Assembly: GCA_965213925.1 (NCBI GenBank)
Contig: OZ243927.1
Location: 896,001 to 960,000 of the forward strand
DNA from: Trueperaceae bacterium
GTDB taxonomy: Bacteria; Deinococcota; Deinococci; Deinococcales; Trueperaceae
Length of the DNA stretch: 64,000 nt
Direction: 5' to 3'
Positions within the stretch are counted from its first letter, which is position 1. Each line of letters begins with the position of its first letter. A program made the translations under genes and the position numbers. Under the pieces are notes generated by a model. That model saw only the letters and a program-made list of their open reading frames with translations, did not search any database and was not told the DNA's origin. This document shows positions 1,455 to 11,428 of the stretch, one piece after another.

Positions 1455-3677
1455 CTATGGGGAGGTATACACCCAATTTAGAAGTGCGCCTTCAACGCCC
1501 CCCGACACCAGACTGTCGCCATCAGATGACCAATCAAGGGCGAGAGAGCCAAAATCACCGAACGTCGTTTGCTGATGCCCTTCCAACCCCGTAATTCTTT
1601 CACCGGTGGCTGCCACCCAAACATGCACGCCGTCGTCCGCCTTCGCTTCGTCATCGTAGGTTGAACCTGACGTGGCGAGCCGGTGACCGTCAGGGCTCCA
1701 CGCTAACTCGTCAATGCCGTAAGGCGCTTCGATTGTAGCTAATGTTTTCTCTGAAGTACTATCAATGATTTGAACTTTTCCGCTCGACCCGCCGACGGCG
1801 AGCCGCTGGCTGTCAGGACTCCAGGCGATAGTTTTCGGATCTCGGTCAATTGTGAACGTGTGCATAAGGCGGCTAGTTTCCGCGTCCCACACTTTGACCT
1901 CGTCATAGCCTCCTCCAGCGAGCTTTGTCCCATCAGGGCTCCACGCCAGAGTAAAAATAGGGCGATAGTCTTGAACCTCGAATGTTTTGAGTAAGCTACC
2001 TGTCGTCCCATCTCGCACCTTGATCGTGCCATCTTGACCCCCACTTGCCAATCTCGTGCCGTCCGGACTCCAGCCGACTGCGTATACCTCACCACGGTGC
2101 GCGTCAACCGAGAAGAGTTGTTTGCGCGTAGCCATATCCCAAATCTTTAGAGCGCCTTCGTTGTCCTGACCACTGGCGCTTGCTAATTTTGAACCGTCCG
2201 GGTGCCAAGCGATGGCGTGAACAAAAGTGTCAAGCTCCGCTAGTGTACCGAGGCTGCGCCCCGAGGCGGCCTCCCAAACCTTAACGGTTCCGTCGTAACC
2301 TCCGCTCGCTACCTTGCCTTCGTGCAATTTGACAGTGGCGACCCGAGCCGCGTGACCGTTCGACGACATGACCTTTTGTCCGCTCTCGGCGTTCCACACG
2401 CTAAACCAAGGGATGGTGTCGTCGGCCGCAAAACGGTCGCCGTCGGGGTGCCAGTCTGCTCCTAAGACCACTCGAGCCTTCCCTACGACGCGCAGCATTT
2501 CTCTGCCCGTAGCGGCGTCCCAGATTCTTAGTTCACCCTCAGTTCCACCCCCTAAGATGCGATTCGTATTGGGTTCCCAGGCTACGACCAGAGGTTGAAA
2601 GTAATCTTCGTCGTCATCTCTCAACAGGACGCGCACAGGCTGACCCGTGTCAGCGTCCCAGATCACGACCTTGCCGCCGTTGCCGCTACTCACAAACTGC
2701 GAGCTGTCGGCGTTCCAGTCGACGTCCCAGACCCCTCCGAAAACATCAATCTCATAGAGGTGTTCGCCGGTTTCTGCATTCCATACACTGATCGAACGGT
2801 CTCCACCTACGATCTTCTCGCCATCCTGACTCCACGCCACAGCGTTATAGGTGTAATTATCGAGGCTCCAAAGCTCCTGGCCGCTCGCTATGTCCCACAC
2901 CCGCAATAACGCGTCGCCGCAGCTAACAAGTTTAGTCCCATCCGGACTCCAAGCTATATCGGTGACTTCTTCTGTATGTCCGACTAGGTCGGCGACGACT
3001 TCGCCCGTTGCCACAGACCAAACTTTAAGGCTTCCGCCCTTAAACGGTGCACCCGAACCACTTGCCACGAAAAGTCCATCCGGACTAAATGCGACCGCTT
3101 CGGCTTTTGCCGAATAGGTGTCGGAATCGAAATGATCATCGAGAGTGAATTTTAGGCTTCCCGTGGTTGCGTCCCAAAGTTTGACCATGCCGTCTGCCCC
3201 GCTAGTCGCGAGCAACTGTCCAGTCGGGCTCCAATCTAAATAGCGGACCTCCGCTGTATGGCCTGCGCCGAGTTTCCAGGCTACGTTAGTAGAGGGTAAC
3301 TGCCCTTCAACTTCTATCTTGCGCGTCGCTTTCGAGGACGTGCTCTTTGCGGAAAGCGTATAAGTTGTCTCTCCAACCGACCAGACAGCAGCTTCGGATA
3401 AACCGCTGACGTCGCCTATATCTGGCTCGAGAGTGAGCGTCAGCGACTCATCGGGAACTTGCCAGCTCAGCTGTACAGCCTCTCCGGCGGGCACAGTGAG
3501 CGTGGAAGCGGTCAATGACGTGATTAAAGTGGGGTCTGTCTCGAGGTCGACCGGGTTGTTGCCGTCTTTTACCTCATGAGTACACGATACTAACAGAGCC
3601 AAACTAAGAAGGAGGGAGCCGACGAGCCGTCTTTGATAAAAAGCCCGCACGTTCAGGCTGCTGAAATAGCGTCTCAT
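1455..3677 (-). CDS. WD40-repeat lipoprotein (about 14 repeats, probably two beta-propellers)
   Basis: Repeated GH...VAWSPDG..LASG..DG.VK.WD units; lipobox LVSC; ATG at 3677 overlaps the upstream TGA (ATGA). Confidence 0.9.
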   Translation of the reverse strand: MRRYFSSLNVRAFYQRRLVGSLLLSLALLVSCTHEVKDGNNPVDLETDPTLITSLTASTLTVPAGEAVQLSWQVPDESLTLTLEPDIGDVSGLSEAAVWSVGETTYTLSAKSTSSKATRKIEVEGQLPSTNVAWKLGAGHTAEVRYLDWSPTGQLLATSGADGMVKLWDATTGSLKFTLDDHFDSDTYSAKAEAVAFSPDGLFVASGSGAPFKGGSLKVWSVATGEVVADLVGHTEEVTDIAWSPDGTKLVSCGDALLRVWDIASGQELWSLDNYTYNAVAWSQDGEKIVGGDRSISVWNAETGEHLYEIDVFGGVWDVDWNADSSQFVSSGNGGKVVIWDADTGQPVRVLLRDDDEDYFQPLVVAWEPNTNRILGGGTEGELRIWDAATGREMLRVVGKARVVLGADWHPDGDRFAADDTIPWFSVWNAESGQKVMSSNGHAARVATVKLHEGKVASGGYDGTVKVWEAASGRSLGTLAELDTFVHAIAWHPDGSKLASASGQDNEGALKIWDMATRKQLFSVDAHRGEVYAVGWSPDGTRLASGGQDGTIKVRDGTTGSLLKTFEVQDYRPIFTLAWSPDGTKLAGGGYDEVKVWDAETSRLMHTFTIDRDPKTIAWSPDSQRLAVGGSSGKVQIIDSTSEKTLATIEAPYGIDELAWSPDGHRLATSGSTYDDEAKADDGVHVWVAATGERITGLEGHQQTTFGDFGSLALDWSSDGDSLVSGGVEGALLNWVYTSP

Positions 3678-4797
3678 TTGAAGAAGAGGCTCCAAAGGAT
3701 AACTTCTGCTCCTCGGCTACCAGAGACGAGAAACTGGCCGTCCGAACTCCAATCAAGCGTGGTAACTGATCCGATATGACCTATAAGTGAAACAAGCTCT
3801 TGGCCGGTTATGGCGTTCCAGATTTGGACACTTTGGCCGTCGCCGCTGGCGGCGAGTTGAGTACCGTCAGGGCTCCAGCTAAGCCCATAGATAAAGCGGT
3901 TAACGTCTGAATATATAGTGAACGGCTCCGAAGGAGATATCAGGGTCCATACCTTAACCTTGGACGAGTCAAGCGTAGCGGCTAAACGCGTACCGTCAGG
4001 GCTCCAAGCCAAATTGTGCACGCTATCGTAAGTGTCAAGCCCTTTCAAGACAATTTCCTTGCTCGTCGCGACCTCCCAAACGCTAACGTCTCCCCACTGG
4101 TTGCCCGCTGCGAGAAAACGTCCATCTGGACTCCAGACGATGTCAGCGATGCGGCCGGAGATTCCAGAAAAAGACACGCCCTCAGTCCCGGTCGCAGCGT
4201 CCCAGGTCTTAATAGCGCCTATACCGCTGTCTTTTAATTCGCCTCCTGCCGAGCGGACGCCATCCGGCCCCCAGTCGATAATCGCTTCGTAGCTGCCTTC
4301 AATCGTAAGTTGAAGACCTCCAGATGTTACGTCCCAAGTCTTGAATCTAGCCACGCTACCTGTCCCAGCGCCAGGGACGATTTCATAATAAGCAGCTGTT
4401 GTAAAGGCGCTGCCATCAGGCTTCCAAGTTGCGTCATCGAAGCCTGGATAGCTATTGTCGGTGAGAGACGATAGTTTCGTTCCGGTTGTAGTCTGCCACA
4501 GGTAGGCAACACCATCACGGGCAACGCTTAAAACACGGCTGTTGTCTGGGCTGAAGGTTACGGCAGTCACCTCGTCTTGGTGCCCCGCCGCGAAGGTGGT
4601 AATGGTCAGATCCTTCGCAGCAGTGTCTGCATTCCATAGTCCAAGCGTGCCATCTGTGGCTCCTGTGAGAAGTTTAGTGCCCTCTGGATGCCAAGCAATG
4701 TCGGCTTCCCAGGAAGAAAGTCCCTCCGTCTCCTTAGCGCCCTTGAGTTCTCGCAGCGCAGACCCAGTTGAGGCATCAGCAAGAATGGCATGGAGAT
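3674..4797 (-). pseudogene. WD40-repeat protein, 5'-truncated
   Basis: WD40 frame continues upstream of ORF 3674-4570 (HAILADASTG...IAWHPEGTKLLTGATDGTLGLWNA) to about 4797, then switches to the antisense of cas5e sequence with no start codon. Confidence 0.7.
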
Positions 4798-5073
4798 CCC
4801 TAGCCGATCTATCTCGGTCGGCGTGGCTACTATCCGAGCGTCCCGCTGTTTGTCATTGACGGGCTGAAAAAGGCGAGTTTGGAGGAGGCTATCGCTACCT
4901 ATCCCCGTGTCCTAGCCGATAAAGCGGTGCGGTTCGCCGACTGCCACATCGAAGGCAAAGGCAAGGTCGTACACGACCAGCCCGTCAGCTTCGCCACTCA
5001 TACCTTCGGACCCCGGAGGGTCTACCACTGCTGCGTCAGCAAGTTAGGAGCATCATGTACGTCACCGAACTGA
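4798..5073 (+). pseudogene. cas5e: type I-E Cas5 (Cas5e/CasD), C-terminal fragment
   Basis: Frame reads P*PIYLGRRGYYPSVP...HDQPVSFATHTFGPRRV, matching the Cas5e P.wp.yLGR...Ps.P and D.P.sF...RrF..R.v motifs; overlaps the cas6e start; N-terminal half absent. Confidence 0.8.
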
Positions 5074-5723
5074 CCTTAAACCAGGACAACCTCTTCGCCA
5101 TGCGCGACGTCGCCGACCGCTACGAGACGCACCGCTCTGTGAAGCGCTTGACCGAAGGGATGGAGCGCAGGGTTTTGTGGCGGCTCGACATGCAGCGTGA
5201 ATGGCGGCTCACGGTTCAATGTGAGCGTCCGCTCGAGCCGCGCTATGTGTCCAAGGCGATGCCCGGATACGCCGATCAAGTCCGGAGCGCGGAGGTTGCT
5301 ACGAATTTCGACCCTGGCGACCTGCTCCTCTTCCAGCTCGAGGCGAACCCGACCGTGAAGTGTGCCAAAAAGCGGCGGGCGCTAAAGAGTATGGCTGAGC
5401 TACAGGAGTGGCTACAAAGGAAGTTTGATGATGCAGGTTGTGAACTCCTAGACTTTGCAATCTTGAAGCAGCAAGCGTTACGGTTATATCGCCAGAAGAG
5501 GCCAGATGAACAAGAAAATGACGACGAGAATGGGTGTAAGTACGCCATGTTCAACAGCGTCAGGTTCATGGGCAGCACTAAAGTAGTAGACCTTAAAGCG
5601 CTCAAAGATACGCTCGAGGCTGGCATCGGCAGCGCGAAGGGATATGGCTTTGGGTTGCTCTCATTGCGACCTATCCCTTACAGAGACATAGCTGGAGTTA
5701 AAGTCTCAAAAAGCGTGTGTTGA
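5055..5723 (+). CDS. cas6e: type I-E CRISPR endoribonuclease Cas6e (CasE/Cse3)
   Basis: MYVTELTL..Y.TH..LWR N-terminus, F.LEANPT, C-terminal G-loop GIGSAKGYGFGLL; RBS AGGAG upstream; array directly downstream. Confidence 0.93.
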   Translation: MYVTELTLNQDNLFAMRDVADRYETHRSVKRLTEGMERRVLWRLDMQREWRLTVQCERPLEPRYVSKAMPGYADQVRSAEVATNFDPGDLLLFQLEANPTVKCAKKRRALKSMAELQEWLQRKFDDAGCELLDFAILKQQALRLYRQKRPDEQENDDENGCKYAMFNSVRFMGSTKVVDLKALKDTLEAGIGSAKGYGFGLLSLRPIPYRDIAGVKVSKSVC

Positions 5724-5729
5724 TCGAGC

Positions 5730-5878
5730 CTTTTCCCCACTCGCGTGGGGGTGGCGCGGGCGACTGATGCGCCTCGCCCTACTCCTCGCCTTTTCCCCAC
5801 TCGCGTGGGGGTGGCGCGCAAACGGGCGCGGCGAAGGGCAAAGAGGGCATTCTTCCCCACATTGGTGGGGGCGGTACC
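5730..5878 (+). CRISPR. type I-E mini CRISPR array: 3 repeats (third atypical), 2 spacers
   Basis: CTTTTCCCCACTCGCGTGGGGGTGGCGCG at 5730-5758 and 5790-5818; diverged TTCTTCCCCACATTGGTGGGGGCGGTACC at 5850-5878; exact 60-bp period; CCCCAC/GTGGGG stem; spacers 5759-5789 and 5819-5849. Confidence 0.92.
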
Positions 5879-6048
5879 ATCAGCAGAGCAAATCAAAAGC
5901 GAAAGCTGGAGTAAGTCCAGTGCATCGCGGCGAATCGCCAAAATACATTGGACGGCTGATGTATAGAAATGTCGATATCCAAGACATTGGGCGCATGATG
6001 TTTGAAACTCTTGATTAGACGAGGACTTACAGGAAGGCGTAGCAACTC

Positions 6049-6711
6049 CTATGTTGCGACTGGATGTCGAATCTCTCCAATCATGAGTCCCATTACTATG
6101 CTCGATTGGAACCAGCAGAAATTCTCGTCAACAGGGGCACGAAGTACATCCGTGAAACGCAGGTCGTACCCGCAAATTACGCAACAGTGGAGTTCCTCTT
6201 CGTCACCTCTACCGATCACTATAGCGCTCCCATAGCTATCACACTCGGTGTGTAGAAAGTTCTTATGATGTACGCAAACGCTGCAAAAGCTATACATCCA
6301 CTCCCGCCGAAAGAAAGGTTGCGTGTCCTCGAGAAGGCAGCGCGGACAATATTGAGTTGTGACAATTGGTTTAGGAGTTTTCGTCTGACGTGGGCGGTGA
6401 GAAAGTAGCTCACGCGAGCGGACACTCGCGCTTTTAATGCGTACCCGTGTCGGCGCAAGCAGCGCTTCGATATCGCCCACTGCTTGACCCGTACCCCGAG
6501 CCAAAACCTCGACCACGCTTTCTAGCTGACTGCCCTTTCGGTCTCTTATCCCTTTAGGGATAAGAGACTTGAGCAGCTTTTTTCCACTCCGCTTCTCCAA
6601 CACCTTCCAAAATCTATCCCAAGCTAAGCCGTTGCTCACAGCCAACCTAGCAACCCAGGAAGCGAAACTCTCACCTTGAAACAGTGAAGCGTGATACAGC
6701 CACAAATCCAT
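6049..6711 (-). CDS. tniQ: TniQ family Tn7-like target-selector protein
   Basis: GESFASWVARLAVSNG N-terminal motif; QYCPRCL.ED..PFFRREW.....C..H...L...C zinc motifs; C-terminal CVICGYDL; ATG at 6711 follows a TACACT -10 box. Confidence 0.88.
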   Translation of the reverse strand: MDLWLYHASLFQGESFASWVARLAVSNGLAWDRFWKVLEKRSGKKLLKSLIPKGIRDRKGSQLESVVEVLARGTGQAVGDIEALLAPTRVRIKSASVRSRELLSHRPRQTKTPKPIVTTQYCPRCLLEDTQPFFRREWMYSFCSVCVHHKNFLHTECDSYGSAIVIGRGDEEELHCCVICGYDLRFTDVLRAPVDENFCWFQSSIVMGLMIGEIRHPVAT

Positions 6712-6832
6712 ATGACAGTGTAGCAAATAGAGCAGCTTTCTTCGAAAGGACTGAAGTTGTAAACCGCTTCGGAGATCGCCCGTATACAGCCACTTTGTGA
6801 TATTATGCAGATGTGCCCCGCCCGAGCCAGAG

Positions 6833-6880
6833 CGATTCTCAGTATTCTTTACCTATTCTCAAAATTCTTTGTTTCTGACA
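6833..6880 (-). mobile_element. putative Tn7-like transposon end
   Basis: Minus strand reads TGTCAGAA-ACAAAGAATTTTGAGAATAG-GTAAAGAATACTGAGAATCG: terminal TGT, 8 bp, then two 20-bp-period direct repeats AAAGAATnnTGAGAAT. Confidence 0.7.
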
Positions 6881-6924
6881 CACCTATTCGAATAGAGGCG
6901 ACTGCGGCGGATAGTTCGTAATCA

Positions 6925-6958
6925 TGACCTCTTTGCCCTTCGCCGCGCCCTCTTGCTT
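6925..6958 (-). other. protospacer (6925-6955) plus 5'-AAG PAM (6956-6958) matching spacer 2
   Basis: Target CAAGAGGGCGCGGCGAAGGGCAAAGAGGTCA vs spacer CAAACGGGCGCGGCGAAGGGCAAAGAGGGCA, 28/31 identical. Confidence 0.9.
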
Positions 6959-7192
6959 ATAGTTGTTCATCCCGTACTGAAGTTCCCAAGGGACGATGTG
7001 CGCAAATGAAAAGAGCGCCCTGACCTCTTCGCAATCGTCATAAGTGATGAGCCATTTGTGCTTCACCTTTTGCATCACGGCGGCAAAACGCTCGTGATCG
7101 AAGGTCGTGTGCAGCTTCCCTTTTTTGCCGTAGAGCTTTGACTTTGTAGCGGATAAATAGGGCGGGTCCAGGAAAATAAAGACGTTTTCGCC

Positions 7193-7380
7193 GCCTAACG
7201 CACCGGGAGACCCGGATGCTGCGGACCCTAAACCCGGATGCTGCGGACCCTAACGCACCGGGAGACCCGGATTTCGCCGGACCCTAACGCACCGGGAGAC
7301 CCGGATGCTGCGGACCCTAACGCACCGGGAGACCCGGATGCTGCGGACCCTAACGCACCGGGAGACCCGGATGCTGCGGA
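7193..7380. repeat. 33-bp tandem repeat, 6 units (33,22,34,33,33,33 bp)
   Basis: Unit CCCTAACGCACCGGGAGACCCGGATGCTGCGGA; encodes SAASGSPGALG on the minus strand. Confidence 0.95.
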
Positions 7381-8041
7381 TGGCGCTAAGACGACCTCTT
7401 CGTAGTCGAGATTGGTAATCTTGGTCCCTTCAAGAAGAGGGGCGACGCGCCGTAAACGCCCTATCGAGGACTGCGTGAAGCGCTTTTCAAATGCACCTTG
7501 CGAATAGCCGCCCGCTTCGACCGTGCCCGAAAAGGTGATGCGGTTGAGGAGAAAAAAGCGGATGGCTCTGTGTAAGGGTGCGTCGGGTACGTTATCGACC
7601 AATGAGCGGTGCAGCGTGCGTCCGTCTGTCACCGTATCTTTCTGCTGCTGCACGCCTTCGACGAGCGCCTCTGGGCAATCGCGTAGGTAAAGCCAGAAGT
7701 GGTAAAGCTCTGCGTTGAGGTCGCTAATCCAGAACGAGGCGTTTGGGTGTTGCTGCCGCAAAGCTAAAAAGACAGAGCCGCCCCCTATGAAGGGTTCGCG
7801 GAACTCGCTGAACGTTGGAACGAGCGGCAGGATGGTTTTAAGTGCTTTTGCCTTACCGCCTGGATACCTCAGCGGTGTTTTTACCGAAGTGAAAAGACCG
7901 TCTTGCATTGACGTGCATCGTATCAGTCAATCGTGCCAGCTACTACCTCGAGGTGCAGGGTTAGGACACTACACGGAACAGTCACGCGCGAATGTCGCCT
8001 GACAGGAACGTAAAATATTTCACTTTGCTAAACTACCTCTA

Positions 8042-9688: not shown

Positions 9689-11428
9689 ATGTCGAGAGCA
9701 CATAAATACGACGTGATTGTGATTGGCGCGGGCGGCTCAGGGTTGATGGCGGCGCGGTACGCGGCGCAGGAGCCCGGCGTGTCCGTCGCGGTCATCAGTA
9801 AACTTTACCCGACCCGCTCGCATACAGGGGCGGCGCAAGGGGGTGTGGGCGCAGCTTTAGGCAACGTCACCGACGACCACCCCGACTGGCACGCCTTCGA
9901 TACGGTCAAGGGTGGCGACTACCTAGCGGACCAAGACGTCGCGGAGATGTTCGCGTACGAAGTCGTCGAGGCAGTCTACGAGTTAGAGCACATGGGCTTG
10001 CCCTTCTCACGTACGCCTGAAGGCAAAATCGCCCAGCGTAAATTCGGTGGGCACACCCGCGAATTCGGCAAGAGCGCCGTCGAACGTGCCTGCTACGCGG
10101 CGGACCGCACGGGTCACATGATTTTGCAGACGCTCTATCAGCAGTCCATCAAGAACAACGTGACCTTTTTCAACGAGTTCCACGTGCTCGACATGATCAT
10201 GGAAGCCGGTGAGTGTCGCGGCGTGGTGGCGTACGAGCTTGCCACGGGCGAGCTTCACACCTTCCAGGCGAAAGCCACGATTGTCGCCACCGGCGGCAAC
10301 GGGCGCATGTTCAAAGTGACCTCGAACGCGCACGCCTTGACGGGCGACATGATGAGCGTCGTCTACCGGCGCGGCATCCCGATTGAAGACCCCGAGTTTT
10401 ACCAGTTCCACCCGACGGGTCTCTACAAAATTGGCGTTTTACTGACTGAGGGCGCAAGAGGTGAAGGTGGGATTTTGCGTAATAGCGAGGGCGAGCGCTT
10501 TATGGAGCGTTACGCGCCTTCCATCAAGGACTTAGCGCCGCGGGACATGGTCTCGAGGGCGATGTACCTAGAGATGCGCGAAGGGCGCGGCACCGGACCC
10601 GACGCCGACTACATCCACCTCGACCTCACCCACATCGACGATCACATCATCGAGACGCGCCTCCCCGATATCACCGAGTTCGCCCGGATTTACCTAGGCG
10701 TTGACCCCTTAAACGAGCCCGTCCCCGTGCAACCCACCGCGCACTACGCGATGGGTGGCATCCCCACGACCATCGACACCGAAGTCATCATGGACGGCGA
10801 CAACGCCGTCGTGCCAGGGCTCTACGCCGCAGGTGAAACAGCGTGCGCCTCGCTGCACGGCGCGAACCGCCTCGGCACAAACTCGTTAGGCGACCTCATC
10901 GTGTTCGGACGCCGCGCGGGTATCTTCGCTGCTCGTTACGCCGCGGGAGCGGAGTACGGCAAGCTGCCTTTAGACGCGCAAGACTTTGCTAAGAGCCAAC
11001 TCGACACCGCGCTGAACGGCTCTGGTAAGGAGCGCGTGAGCCGCATTCGTAAAGAGATGCAAAACACCATGATGGACAACGCCTCGGTCTTCCGCACTGA
11101 AGAGACCCTGTGTACGCAGATCGAAAAGCTCAGAGAACTCAAAGAGCGCTATAAAGGCATCGGCGTTGAGGACAAGGGCGAGCAGTTCAACACGGAGCTG
11201 ATGGAAGCGATTGAACTCGGCTTCCTTTTAGACAACGCCGAGCACCTCGTCCACGCGGCGTATAACCGCAAGGAATCGCGCGGCGCGCACTCCCGCGAGG
11301 ACTACAAGGAGCGCAACGACGACGAGTGGCTCAAGCACACGCTCGTCTATAAAGACGGCGACGGCGTGCGCATCGACTATAAACCCGTAACCTTGGGCAA
11401 GTACGAGCCTAAGCCGAGAGTTTATTAA
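9689..11428 (+). CDS. sdhA: succinate dehydrogenase flavoprotein
   Basis: [19 protein letters not shown]-His motif, HGANRLG. Confidence 0.97.

Follow-up and report, generated by a model that had tools for sequence, protein, structure and literature searches.

Remnant of a putative TniQ-dependent type I-E CRISPR-associated transposon at its own guide target in a Trueperaceae bacterium

Among CRISPR systems linked to transposons, the available portions of the 2025 classification (PMC12669027) list I-F3, I-B2, I-D, I-C, IV-A, Mu-linked I-A and TniQ-less I-E5, and describe I-E4 as a PD-DExK nuclease variant; no TniQ-dependent I-E variant appears in those portions. The accessible part of PMC11406308 counts five experimentally verified CRISPR co-options by Tn7-like elements, none of them type I-E, and that of 10.1101/2021.08.16.456562 reports I-E only with Rpn, alongside I-C CRISPR-associated transposons (CASTs). 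The name "type I-E CAST" is already in print for the Streptomyces telomeric element (variant I-E5), which in the accessible part of its description is not Tn7-like, has neither TniQ nor TnsA, keeps an active Cas3 and has no adjacent protospacer (10.1101/2024.11.13.623437). Here, we describe the right-hand remnant of a Tn7-like element at positions 4804-6880 of a 64,000-nucleotide stretch of a Trueperaceae bacterium genome (assembly GCA_965213925.1, contig OZ243927.1, positions 896,001 to 960,000), hereafter the window, to which all coordinates refer unless a locus or contig is named. We regard it, with a probability of roughly 0.9, as the remnant of a TniQ-dependent type I-E CAST. The genome carrying the window is coded G000; relatives are coded G001, G002, G018, G071 and so on.

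An initial annotation made from the sequence of the window had reported half a cas5e gene, cas6e, a two-spacer array, a convergent tniQ, a TGT end and a match to the last spacer flanked by a protospacer-adjacent motif (PAM), and all of these were recovered in place:

4804..5073, plus strand: 3' half of cas5e; a deletion with its junction near 4800 removed the 5' half
5055..5723, plus strand: cas6e, reading frame intact (PF08798, E 3.6e-34)
5730..5878, plus strand: type I-E mini-array, three 29-nt repeats and two 31-nt spacers, 6 bp past the cas6e stop codon
5759..5789, plus strand: spacer 1, no target identified
5819..5849, plus strand: spacer 2, putative homing guide, matching 6925-6955 of the minus strand at 28/31 (mismatches at positions 4, 5 and 29)
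5908..6711, minus strand: short tniQ (PF06527, E 2.3e-17), stop codon at 6049-6051
6835..6880, minus strand: transposon end, terminal TGT at 6880, two 16-nt TnsB-site-like repeats (6870-6855 and 6850-6835)
6881..6885, plus strand: candidate target-site duplication, present in the G001 empty allele
6925..6958, minus strand: protospacer (6955-6925) and PAM AAG (6958-6956), 44 bp from the end
6884..7908, minus strand: host target gene, D12-class N6-adenine methyltransferase (PF02086, E 1.9e-20)
3674..4800, minus strand: WD40-repeat gene without its 5' end, a flanking gene fused to the cas5e remnant by the deletion

Hidden Markov model profiles confirmed TniQ and Cas6e, with PF06527 above the cut-off for the TniQ of the window and of its relatives; the Cas5e fragment alone fell under the cut-off (PF09704, E 0.0023), as it is half a gene, and it shares 62% identity with residues 133-220 of the Cas5e of G071. 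That genome holds the closest relative, sister to the window copy in both trees (Cas6e 58-60% identical, SH-aLRT 95 for the Cas6e cluster; TniQ 55% identical over 268 aa, the G071 protein being about 270 aa long). In the alignment, window Cas6e keeps the Tyr/His and the Gly-rich loop of the catalytic type. The first two repeats (5730-5758 and 5790-5818) are identical and the third (5850-5878) is degenerate; all three fold into a 7-bp stem with a 4-nt loop, as does the canonical I-E repeat of the host. The transposon repeat is identical to that canonical repeat at 22/29 positions, with the hairpin kept and the last 8 nt (the handle) altered, and this alteration may shield the self-matching guide from the Cas3 system of the host. 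For spacer 2, the runner-up site in the 4.7-Mb genome matched at 24/31 and the best of 300 shuffles at 21. The best non-self match of spacer 1 in its own genome was 25/31, without an AAG PAM; no match was found in the 362 other genomes searched, and plasmids and phages gave chance-level matches only. The array and the cas genes run convergently with tniQ, upstream of which lies the transposon end; its two 16-nt repeats, spaced 20 bp apart, occur nowhere else in the genome, and homologous ends are present in G071, G002 and G001.

The methyltransferase gene, whose 3' end holds the protospacer, has its stop codon 3 bp short of the element. In G001, a sister genome of the same genus in which the site is empty, homology to the window is confined to the right-hand side and starts at 6881, exactly one base beyond the TGT, which bears out the boundary drawn by the initial annotation. 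Synteny on the other side of the empty site is lost, and the original left neighbor cannot be named: hisA adjoins the G001 empty site, and in G000 it lies 3.2 Mb away with no end beside it. No partner copy of the candidate duplication and no matching second end were found within 150 kb of the window copy, nor was a second end found elsewhere in G000 by motif or duplication search. The window methyltransferase loses its frame inside a 33-bp tandem repeat (about 7200-7380), one unit of which measures 34 bp and another 22 bp; the ortholog in G001 is intact (290 aa), and the frameshift may reflect slippage or an assembly error.

To place the remnant among related loci, 363 genomes of the order were searched for TniQ (68 positive) and Cas6e (109 positive), and the two tables were compared by coordinates. 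TniQ lay within 2 kb of Cas6e in 10 genomes. None of these 10 loci carried cas3, cas1 or cas2 in the stretches fetched (some contigs were short), nor did the whole 49-kb G071 and 40-kb G001 spans, and tnsA, tnsB and tnsC were all present in seven. The homologous loci therefore agree with the initial proposal that a TniQ transposon had captured a type I-E Cascade, and they supply what the window lacks (tnsA, tnsB, tnsC and cas8e-cas11-cas7). Among 22 canonical I-E loci of the order, none had tniQ within the fetched stretch; at one of the canonical loci (G231), tniQ lay 26 kb away. The 10 loci fall into two lineages. The lineage of the window (n = 4; G000, G001, G018 and G071, three genera) shares the order cas5e-cas6e-array-convergent tniQ-end-target, its copies being 67-69% identical to G071 at the DNA level, whereas the second (n = 6; G040, G048, G056, G271, G279 and G281), from another family of the order, is arranged tnsA-tnsB-tnsC-tniQ-cas6e-array-cas8e-(cas11)-cas7-cas5e; TniQ is 252-297 aa long in the former and about 400 aa in the latter. 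All five I-E effector families (Cas8e/Cse1, Cas11/Cse2, Cas7e, Cas5e and Cas6e; Pfam Cse1, Cse2, CT1975, Cas5 and Cas6e) were found in G071, G001 and G018. Cas8e and Cas11 are fused in G071, G001 and G281 and Cas11 is separate in G271, in a Cse2 scan that covered the copies other than G279 and G048; in G056 and G040, Cas8e measures only about 400 aa (L124:13379-14578 and L121:13455-14636) and no Cas11 was detected in the Cas8e proteins. The elements carry 1-7 spacers, and Walker B is intact in TnsC of G001 and of five second-lineage copies. No copy was found outside the order by the pattern scans used, which are insensitive: 185,579 species genomes scanned with the window TniQ gave two weak, unrelated loci, a metagenome scan with TniQ patterns gave no relative, a scan with Cas7 patterns gave 80 metagenomic I-E loci (27-35% identity), none with tniQ in the stretch fetched, and a plasmid search with G071 TnsC gave one match (26%). 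Protein searches added a few further close relatives that lack genomic context (P0002-P0004, P0151, P0152 and P0154).

Nine of the 10 elements could be tested for a guide-target pair (the G279 contig ends inside tniQ). In eight of these nine, the best non-self match of the last spacer was the host gene adjoining the element, a different gene each time: the methyltransferase (28/31), arginase (29/31), pilT (26/32), ruvC (24/32), rtcB (29/32), comEA (26/32), comM (20/27, a short spacer) and NFACT (24/32), where pilT (a pilT-type ATPase), comEA (a comEA-type SLBB gene) and comM are names read from Pfam families. The PAM was AAG at six of these targets, AGG at one and AAA at one. Shuffled spacers (300 per spacer, against 150-nt flanks) peaked at 17-22 matches and cross-pairings of each spacer with the seven other flanks reached at most 18; for the second lineage, the 150-nt flanks were cut around the match after it had been found in the whole 14- to 20-kb locus. 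Of 48 mismatches, a count that includes five tail positions of the short G056 spacer, 34 fell at positions divisible by three and 20 at positions divisible by six. The R-loop of type I systems has a gap at every sixth base, and the mismatches place the guides in register with both codon wobble and this gap. The pattern indicates that the guides came from the ortholog of another host.

In the lineage of the window, the target lies beside the tniQ end, and the gap from protospacer to end is 44 (window), 43, 42 and 36 bp; in the second lineage, the target lies beside the tnsA end at about 53, 53, 54 and 61 bp, the end positions being approximate. Measured from the AAG PAM, the end is 74 nt away in G071 and G018 and 75 nt in the window, against a background frequency of AAG of 0.018 per position. 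Two orphan ends of that family, in G001 (before rraA) and in G002, had been found by DNA similarity and played no part in deriving this distance, and hence form an out-of-sample check; they too have an AAG PAM 74 nt from the end. Where the target is on the sense strand, the element stands at or past the stop codon; at the two antisense targets (ruvC and comM), the 5' part of the gene is cut.

The G071 element retains both ends, 48,985 bp apart (about 49 kb), and the order tnsA-tnsB-tnsC-cas8e/cas11 fusion-cas7-cas5e-cas6e-array-tniQ, with all families confirmed by Pfam and the D-D-E residues of TnsB aligned. The best solved-structure matches of its TnsB and TnsC are in PseCAST and those of its TniQ in I-F3, and a predicted complex of its TniQ with Cas6e scored 0.51, not clearly apart from a control at 0.42. 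A second right end directly after the left end (L120:1486-1540, G071:C2:3047102) marks a tandem insertion at the same arginase site. A 564-aa tyrosine recombinase gene adjoins tnsA, and the cargo (L127-L128, L059:5963-7654) includes DUF4007, phosphoadenosine phosphosulfate (PAPS) reductase, BrxL and cysteine desulfurase-like genes, a phosphorothioation- or BREX-like (bacteriophage exclusion) defense set. Spacer 1 of G071 (L058, minus strand) matches a coaE-like gene of G000 (G000:C1:4203785) at 25/31, perhaps a second homing site; the four matches of this spacer elsewhere could not be assigned to coaE. In G018, tnsA-tnsB-tnsC stand at the start of a contig (L271:145-3296, G018:C158) other than that of the cas-tniQ block, and may be unlinked to it.

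The window copy itself is dead. Its tniQ is a pseudogene with a stop at codon 226, where the close homolog P0003 has Trp, and homology continues beyond this stop to 5908; one conserved zinc-finger Cys is replaced by Tyr; and the cas5e half is joined near 4800 to the WD40 gene without its 5' end, which marks a deletion. The missing genes (tnsA, tnsB, tnsC, cas7, cas8e and cas11) were not found anywhere in the G000 assembly (4.75 Mb, 96.9% complete), in line with the earlier view of this copy as probably defective. G000 has one TniQ match and one Cas7e match genome-wide, the latter in a canonical system (cas3, cas1, cas2 and long arrays) 3 Mb away, whose Cas1 finds its best plasmid matches in Thermus (21/27) and Deinococcus (3/27), which agrees with the Deinococcota-like host proposed by the initial annotation. 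TnsA, TnsB and TnsC profiles from the relatives recovered in G000 only an unrelated Tn7-type tnsA-tnsB remnant beside glmS (G000:C1:249757-252236), without tnsC or tnsD; weak tnsA and tnsB matches at C1:1.238-1.241 Mb proved to be an antisense frame and an insertion sequence (IS) gene. A second, far more decayed remnant in G000 (L031, about 10226-10400; G000:C1:3260226) consists of a fragment of tniQ together with a worn end after rpmE, the site of the G002 orphan end, and a PAM again lies 74 nt away. Elsewhere in the window, an 854-bp cassette (492-1345) with a 238-aa membrane-anchored open reading frame has a 100% identical copy at G000:C1:3461587 and occurs at other places in G001 and G002, and two tandem WD40 beta-propeller genes (1455-4800; 31% identical to each other) had no counterpart in a DNA search of the two sister genomes.

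If the element works as I-F3, I-B and I-D CASTs do, Cas6e would cut the mini-array into CRISPR RNA (crRNA), and a Cas8e-Cas11-Cas7-Cas5e-Cas6e complex would bind the host gene at an AAG PAM and form an R-loop. TniQ at the PAM-far end would then load TnsC, and TnsA with TnsB would excise the element (cut-and-paste) and place it, with the tniQ end leading, 42-44 bp beyond the protospacer, which is usually a position just behind the target gene's stop codon. In G000, a later deletion took out tnsABC, cas8e-cas11 and cas7 together with the second end and half of cas5e, and a nonsense mutation arose in tniQ. The second lineage would follow the same principle with an unrelated transposase and the target by the tnsA end, at about 53 bp.

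Several observations weigh against this reading. Gene content, guide-target pairs, PAM, near-fixed distance and empty allele can be read from the DNA, whereas transposition is deduced from sequence and analogy. All four copies in the lineage of the window look damaged: besides the window copy, G001 has IS1 inside tnsB and a stop codon in cas8e, in G018 cas7 is frameshifted and the contig carries no tnsABC, and TnsC of G071 has a degenerate Walker B (SH for DE). The duplication in G071, the only copy in which it could be read, comprises 4 shared flank bp, at a junction with the second, older end, against the 5 bp usual for Tn7. Neither flank of G040 matches a spacer (its last spacer is only 17 nt long), the window's own mismatches do not fall at positions divisible by three, and the G001 gap of 36 bp is outside the 42-44 bp range. 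In the second lineage, ends were set only at the first TGT or where homology to the host gene stops, and neither a second end nor a duplication was found there; a second end was likewise not found in G001 or G018.

Alternatively, the I-E genes could be cargo of a protein-guided Tn7-like element whose TniQ finds the site alone, with a self-matching spacer that silences the gene or arrived after insertion. The second-lineage TniQ, at about 400 aa, has room for a DNA-binding domain, comM is also a site of Cas-free Tn7-like elements in the order (L024 and L129), and G040 lacks a homing match; nevertheless, we consider cargo improbable, since eight different target genes go with one architecture per lineage, the short TniQ (252-297 aa) of the window's lineage leaves less room, no cas1 or cas2 is available to acquire spacers, the wobble-position differences between spacer and resident gene point to the ortholog of another host as source, and the PAM keeps a fixed distance from the end, the two orphan ends included. 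That a complete canonical I-E system with cas3 also resides in G000 and G001 would fit an element working as the Streptomyces telomeric one does, with Cascade marking the site, host Cas3 in trans degrading DNA and the transposase inserting at the damage. The published Streptomyces model lacks TniQ, its protospacers are deleted and its distances vary, whereas TnsA and TniQ are present here, the protospacer is kept at a nearly constant distance, and in G071 and G018 the sole Cas6e match is the transposon's own, so that this route appears very unlikely. That a decayed CRISPR locus and a transposon scrap came together by chance or through mis-assembly might be entertained for a fragment with several broken genes nearby, but this is refuted by the recurrence of the cas5e-cas6e-array-convergent tniQ-end-target order in four genomes of three genera at 67-69% DNA identity to G071, and we give it next to no weight. 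A TniQ-dependent type I-E CAST is thus the explanation we retain.

In trees of TnsB, TnsC and TniQ, each lineage has its own branch amid the Cas-free Tn7-like elements of the order, and a single clade of the seven TnsC proteins was rejected by the approximately unbiased test (p-AU 1.6e-16; 37 rows). In the Cas7, Cas6 and Cas5 trees, built with every third or every sixth metagenomic row, the second lineage forms one clade; that of the window does so in Cas5 (94), and G018 stands apart in Cas7 and Cas6 on long branches. None of the trees contains reference CAST proteins. With two transposase lineages, the I-E Cascade was probably captured at least twice, or was captured once and then transferred between transposons, and a third capture (G018) is possible. 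Two further loci, L273:219-4885 (G280:C418) and L130:9840-14293 (G044:C14), have a short tniQ directly followed by cas5c-cas8c-cas7c (Pfam Cas5, Csd1 and Cas7) and are candidate type I-C CASTs; their TniQ groups with that of the I-E copy in G018 (SH-aLRT 93), which suggests effector swapping on a shared TniQ.

The initial annotation had left novelty to a literature check. The name "type I-E CAST", which stands in a single paper among those searched, is taken by the TniQ-less, Cas3-keeping element, so that any novelty lies in the TniQ-dependent, fixed-distance form, and no such element was found in the literature searched (open-access PMC and bioRxiv, with few subscription papers and no patents). 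"I-E," "Deinococc" and "Truepera" are absent from the text and three supplements of PMC10293859, and no I-E CAST appears in the available parts of 10.1101/2025.07.27.667033 or PMC11300857. Against novelty, the available part of PMC11656645 names I-E among Tn7-like captures but gives no detail; it cites Faure 2019, Rybarski 2021 and Faure 2023. We consider it rather likely that the TniQ-dependent, fixed-distance form is undescribed; the I-E capture of Faure 2019 may be the Streptomyces TnsBC element. We hold with somewhat less confidence, at better than even odds, the joint reading that these elements form an undescribed CAST class, in which unrelated TnsABC-TniQ transposons of a single order acquired an I-E Cascade on at least two occasions and home by crRNA, at an AAG PAM, to many different conserved genes, several of which (pilT, comEA and comM) would serve DNA uptake.

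If correct, this would add one or two independent origins of CRISPR co-option, in a lineage for which no CAST appears in the literature searched, and would show how TniQ docks on a Cascade that has Cas11 subunits and is capped by Cas6e. The type I-E Cascade is the best-characterized class 1 effector, which would make a natural I-E integrase a direct lead for insertion tools and a natural blueprint for coupling this Cascade to programmable DNA integration. The dead window copy leads to complete-looking relatives, and the eight natural guide-target pairs supply testable rules for PAM, distance and mismatches.

Compared with described systems, the elements most resemble I-F3 CASTs (Tn6677 and PseCAST) in having TnsABC with one TniQ, a Cascade without Cas3, Cas1 or Cas2, and a homing guide placed last in the array by a diverged repeat and tolerant of wobble mismatches; unlike I-F3, the effector is type I-E with an AAG PAM and many target genes (about four in I-F3), Cas8e-Cas11 fusions occur (G071, G001 and G281), and no Cas8f-Cas5f fusion, Cas7f or Cas6f families were found by Pfam. 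As in I-B1/I-B2, I-D and I-C CASTs, a Tn7-like element has independently taken over a class 1 effector by way of TniQ, but I-B homing has been described as protein-guided via TnsD, whereas here a spacer matches the chromosomal site. The Rpn-associated I-E Cascade, as far as its available description goes, likewise lacks Cas3 and adjoins a putative mobility gene, but is non-Tn7 and has neither TnsABC nor TniQ (10.1101/2021.08.16.456562). Canonical I-E defense systems have the same five effector families and repeat hairpin, and the best plasmid match of Cas7e is to Thermus (30-34%); the transposon loci differ from them by the absence of cas3, cas1 and cas2, 1-7 spacers, long branches in the Cas7 tree and the altered 8-nt repeat handle. 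Finally, the Streptomyces I-E CAST also links a type I-E Cascade to TnsB and TnsC without cas1 or cas2, but it is one-ended and telomeric, whereas the elements described here have TnsA and TniQ, lack Cas3 and keep a protospacer at a near-fixed distance.

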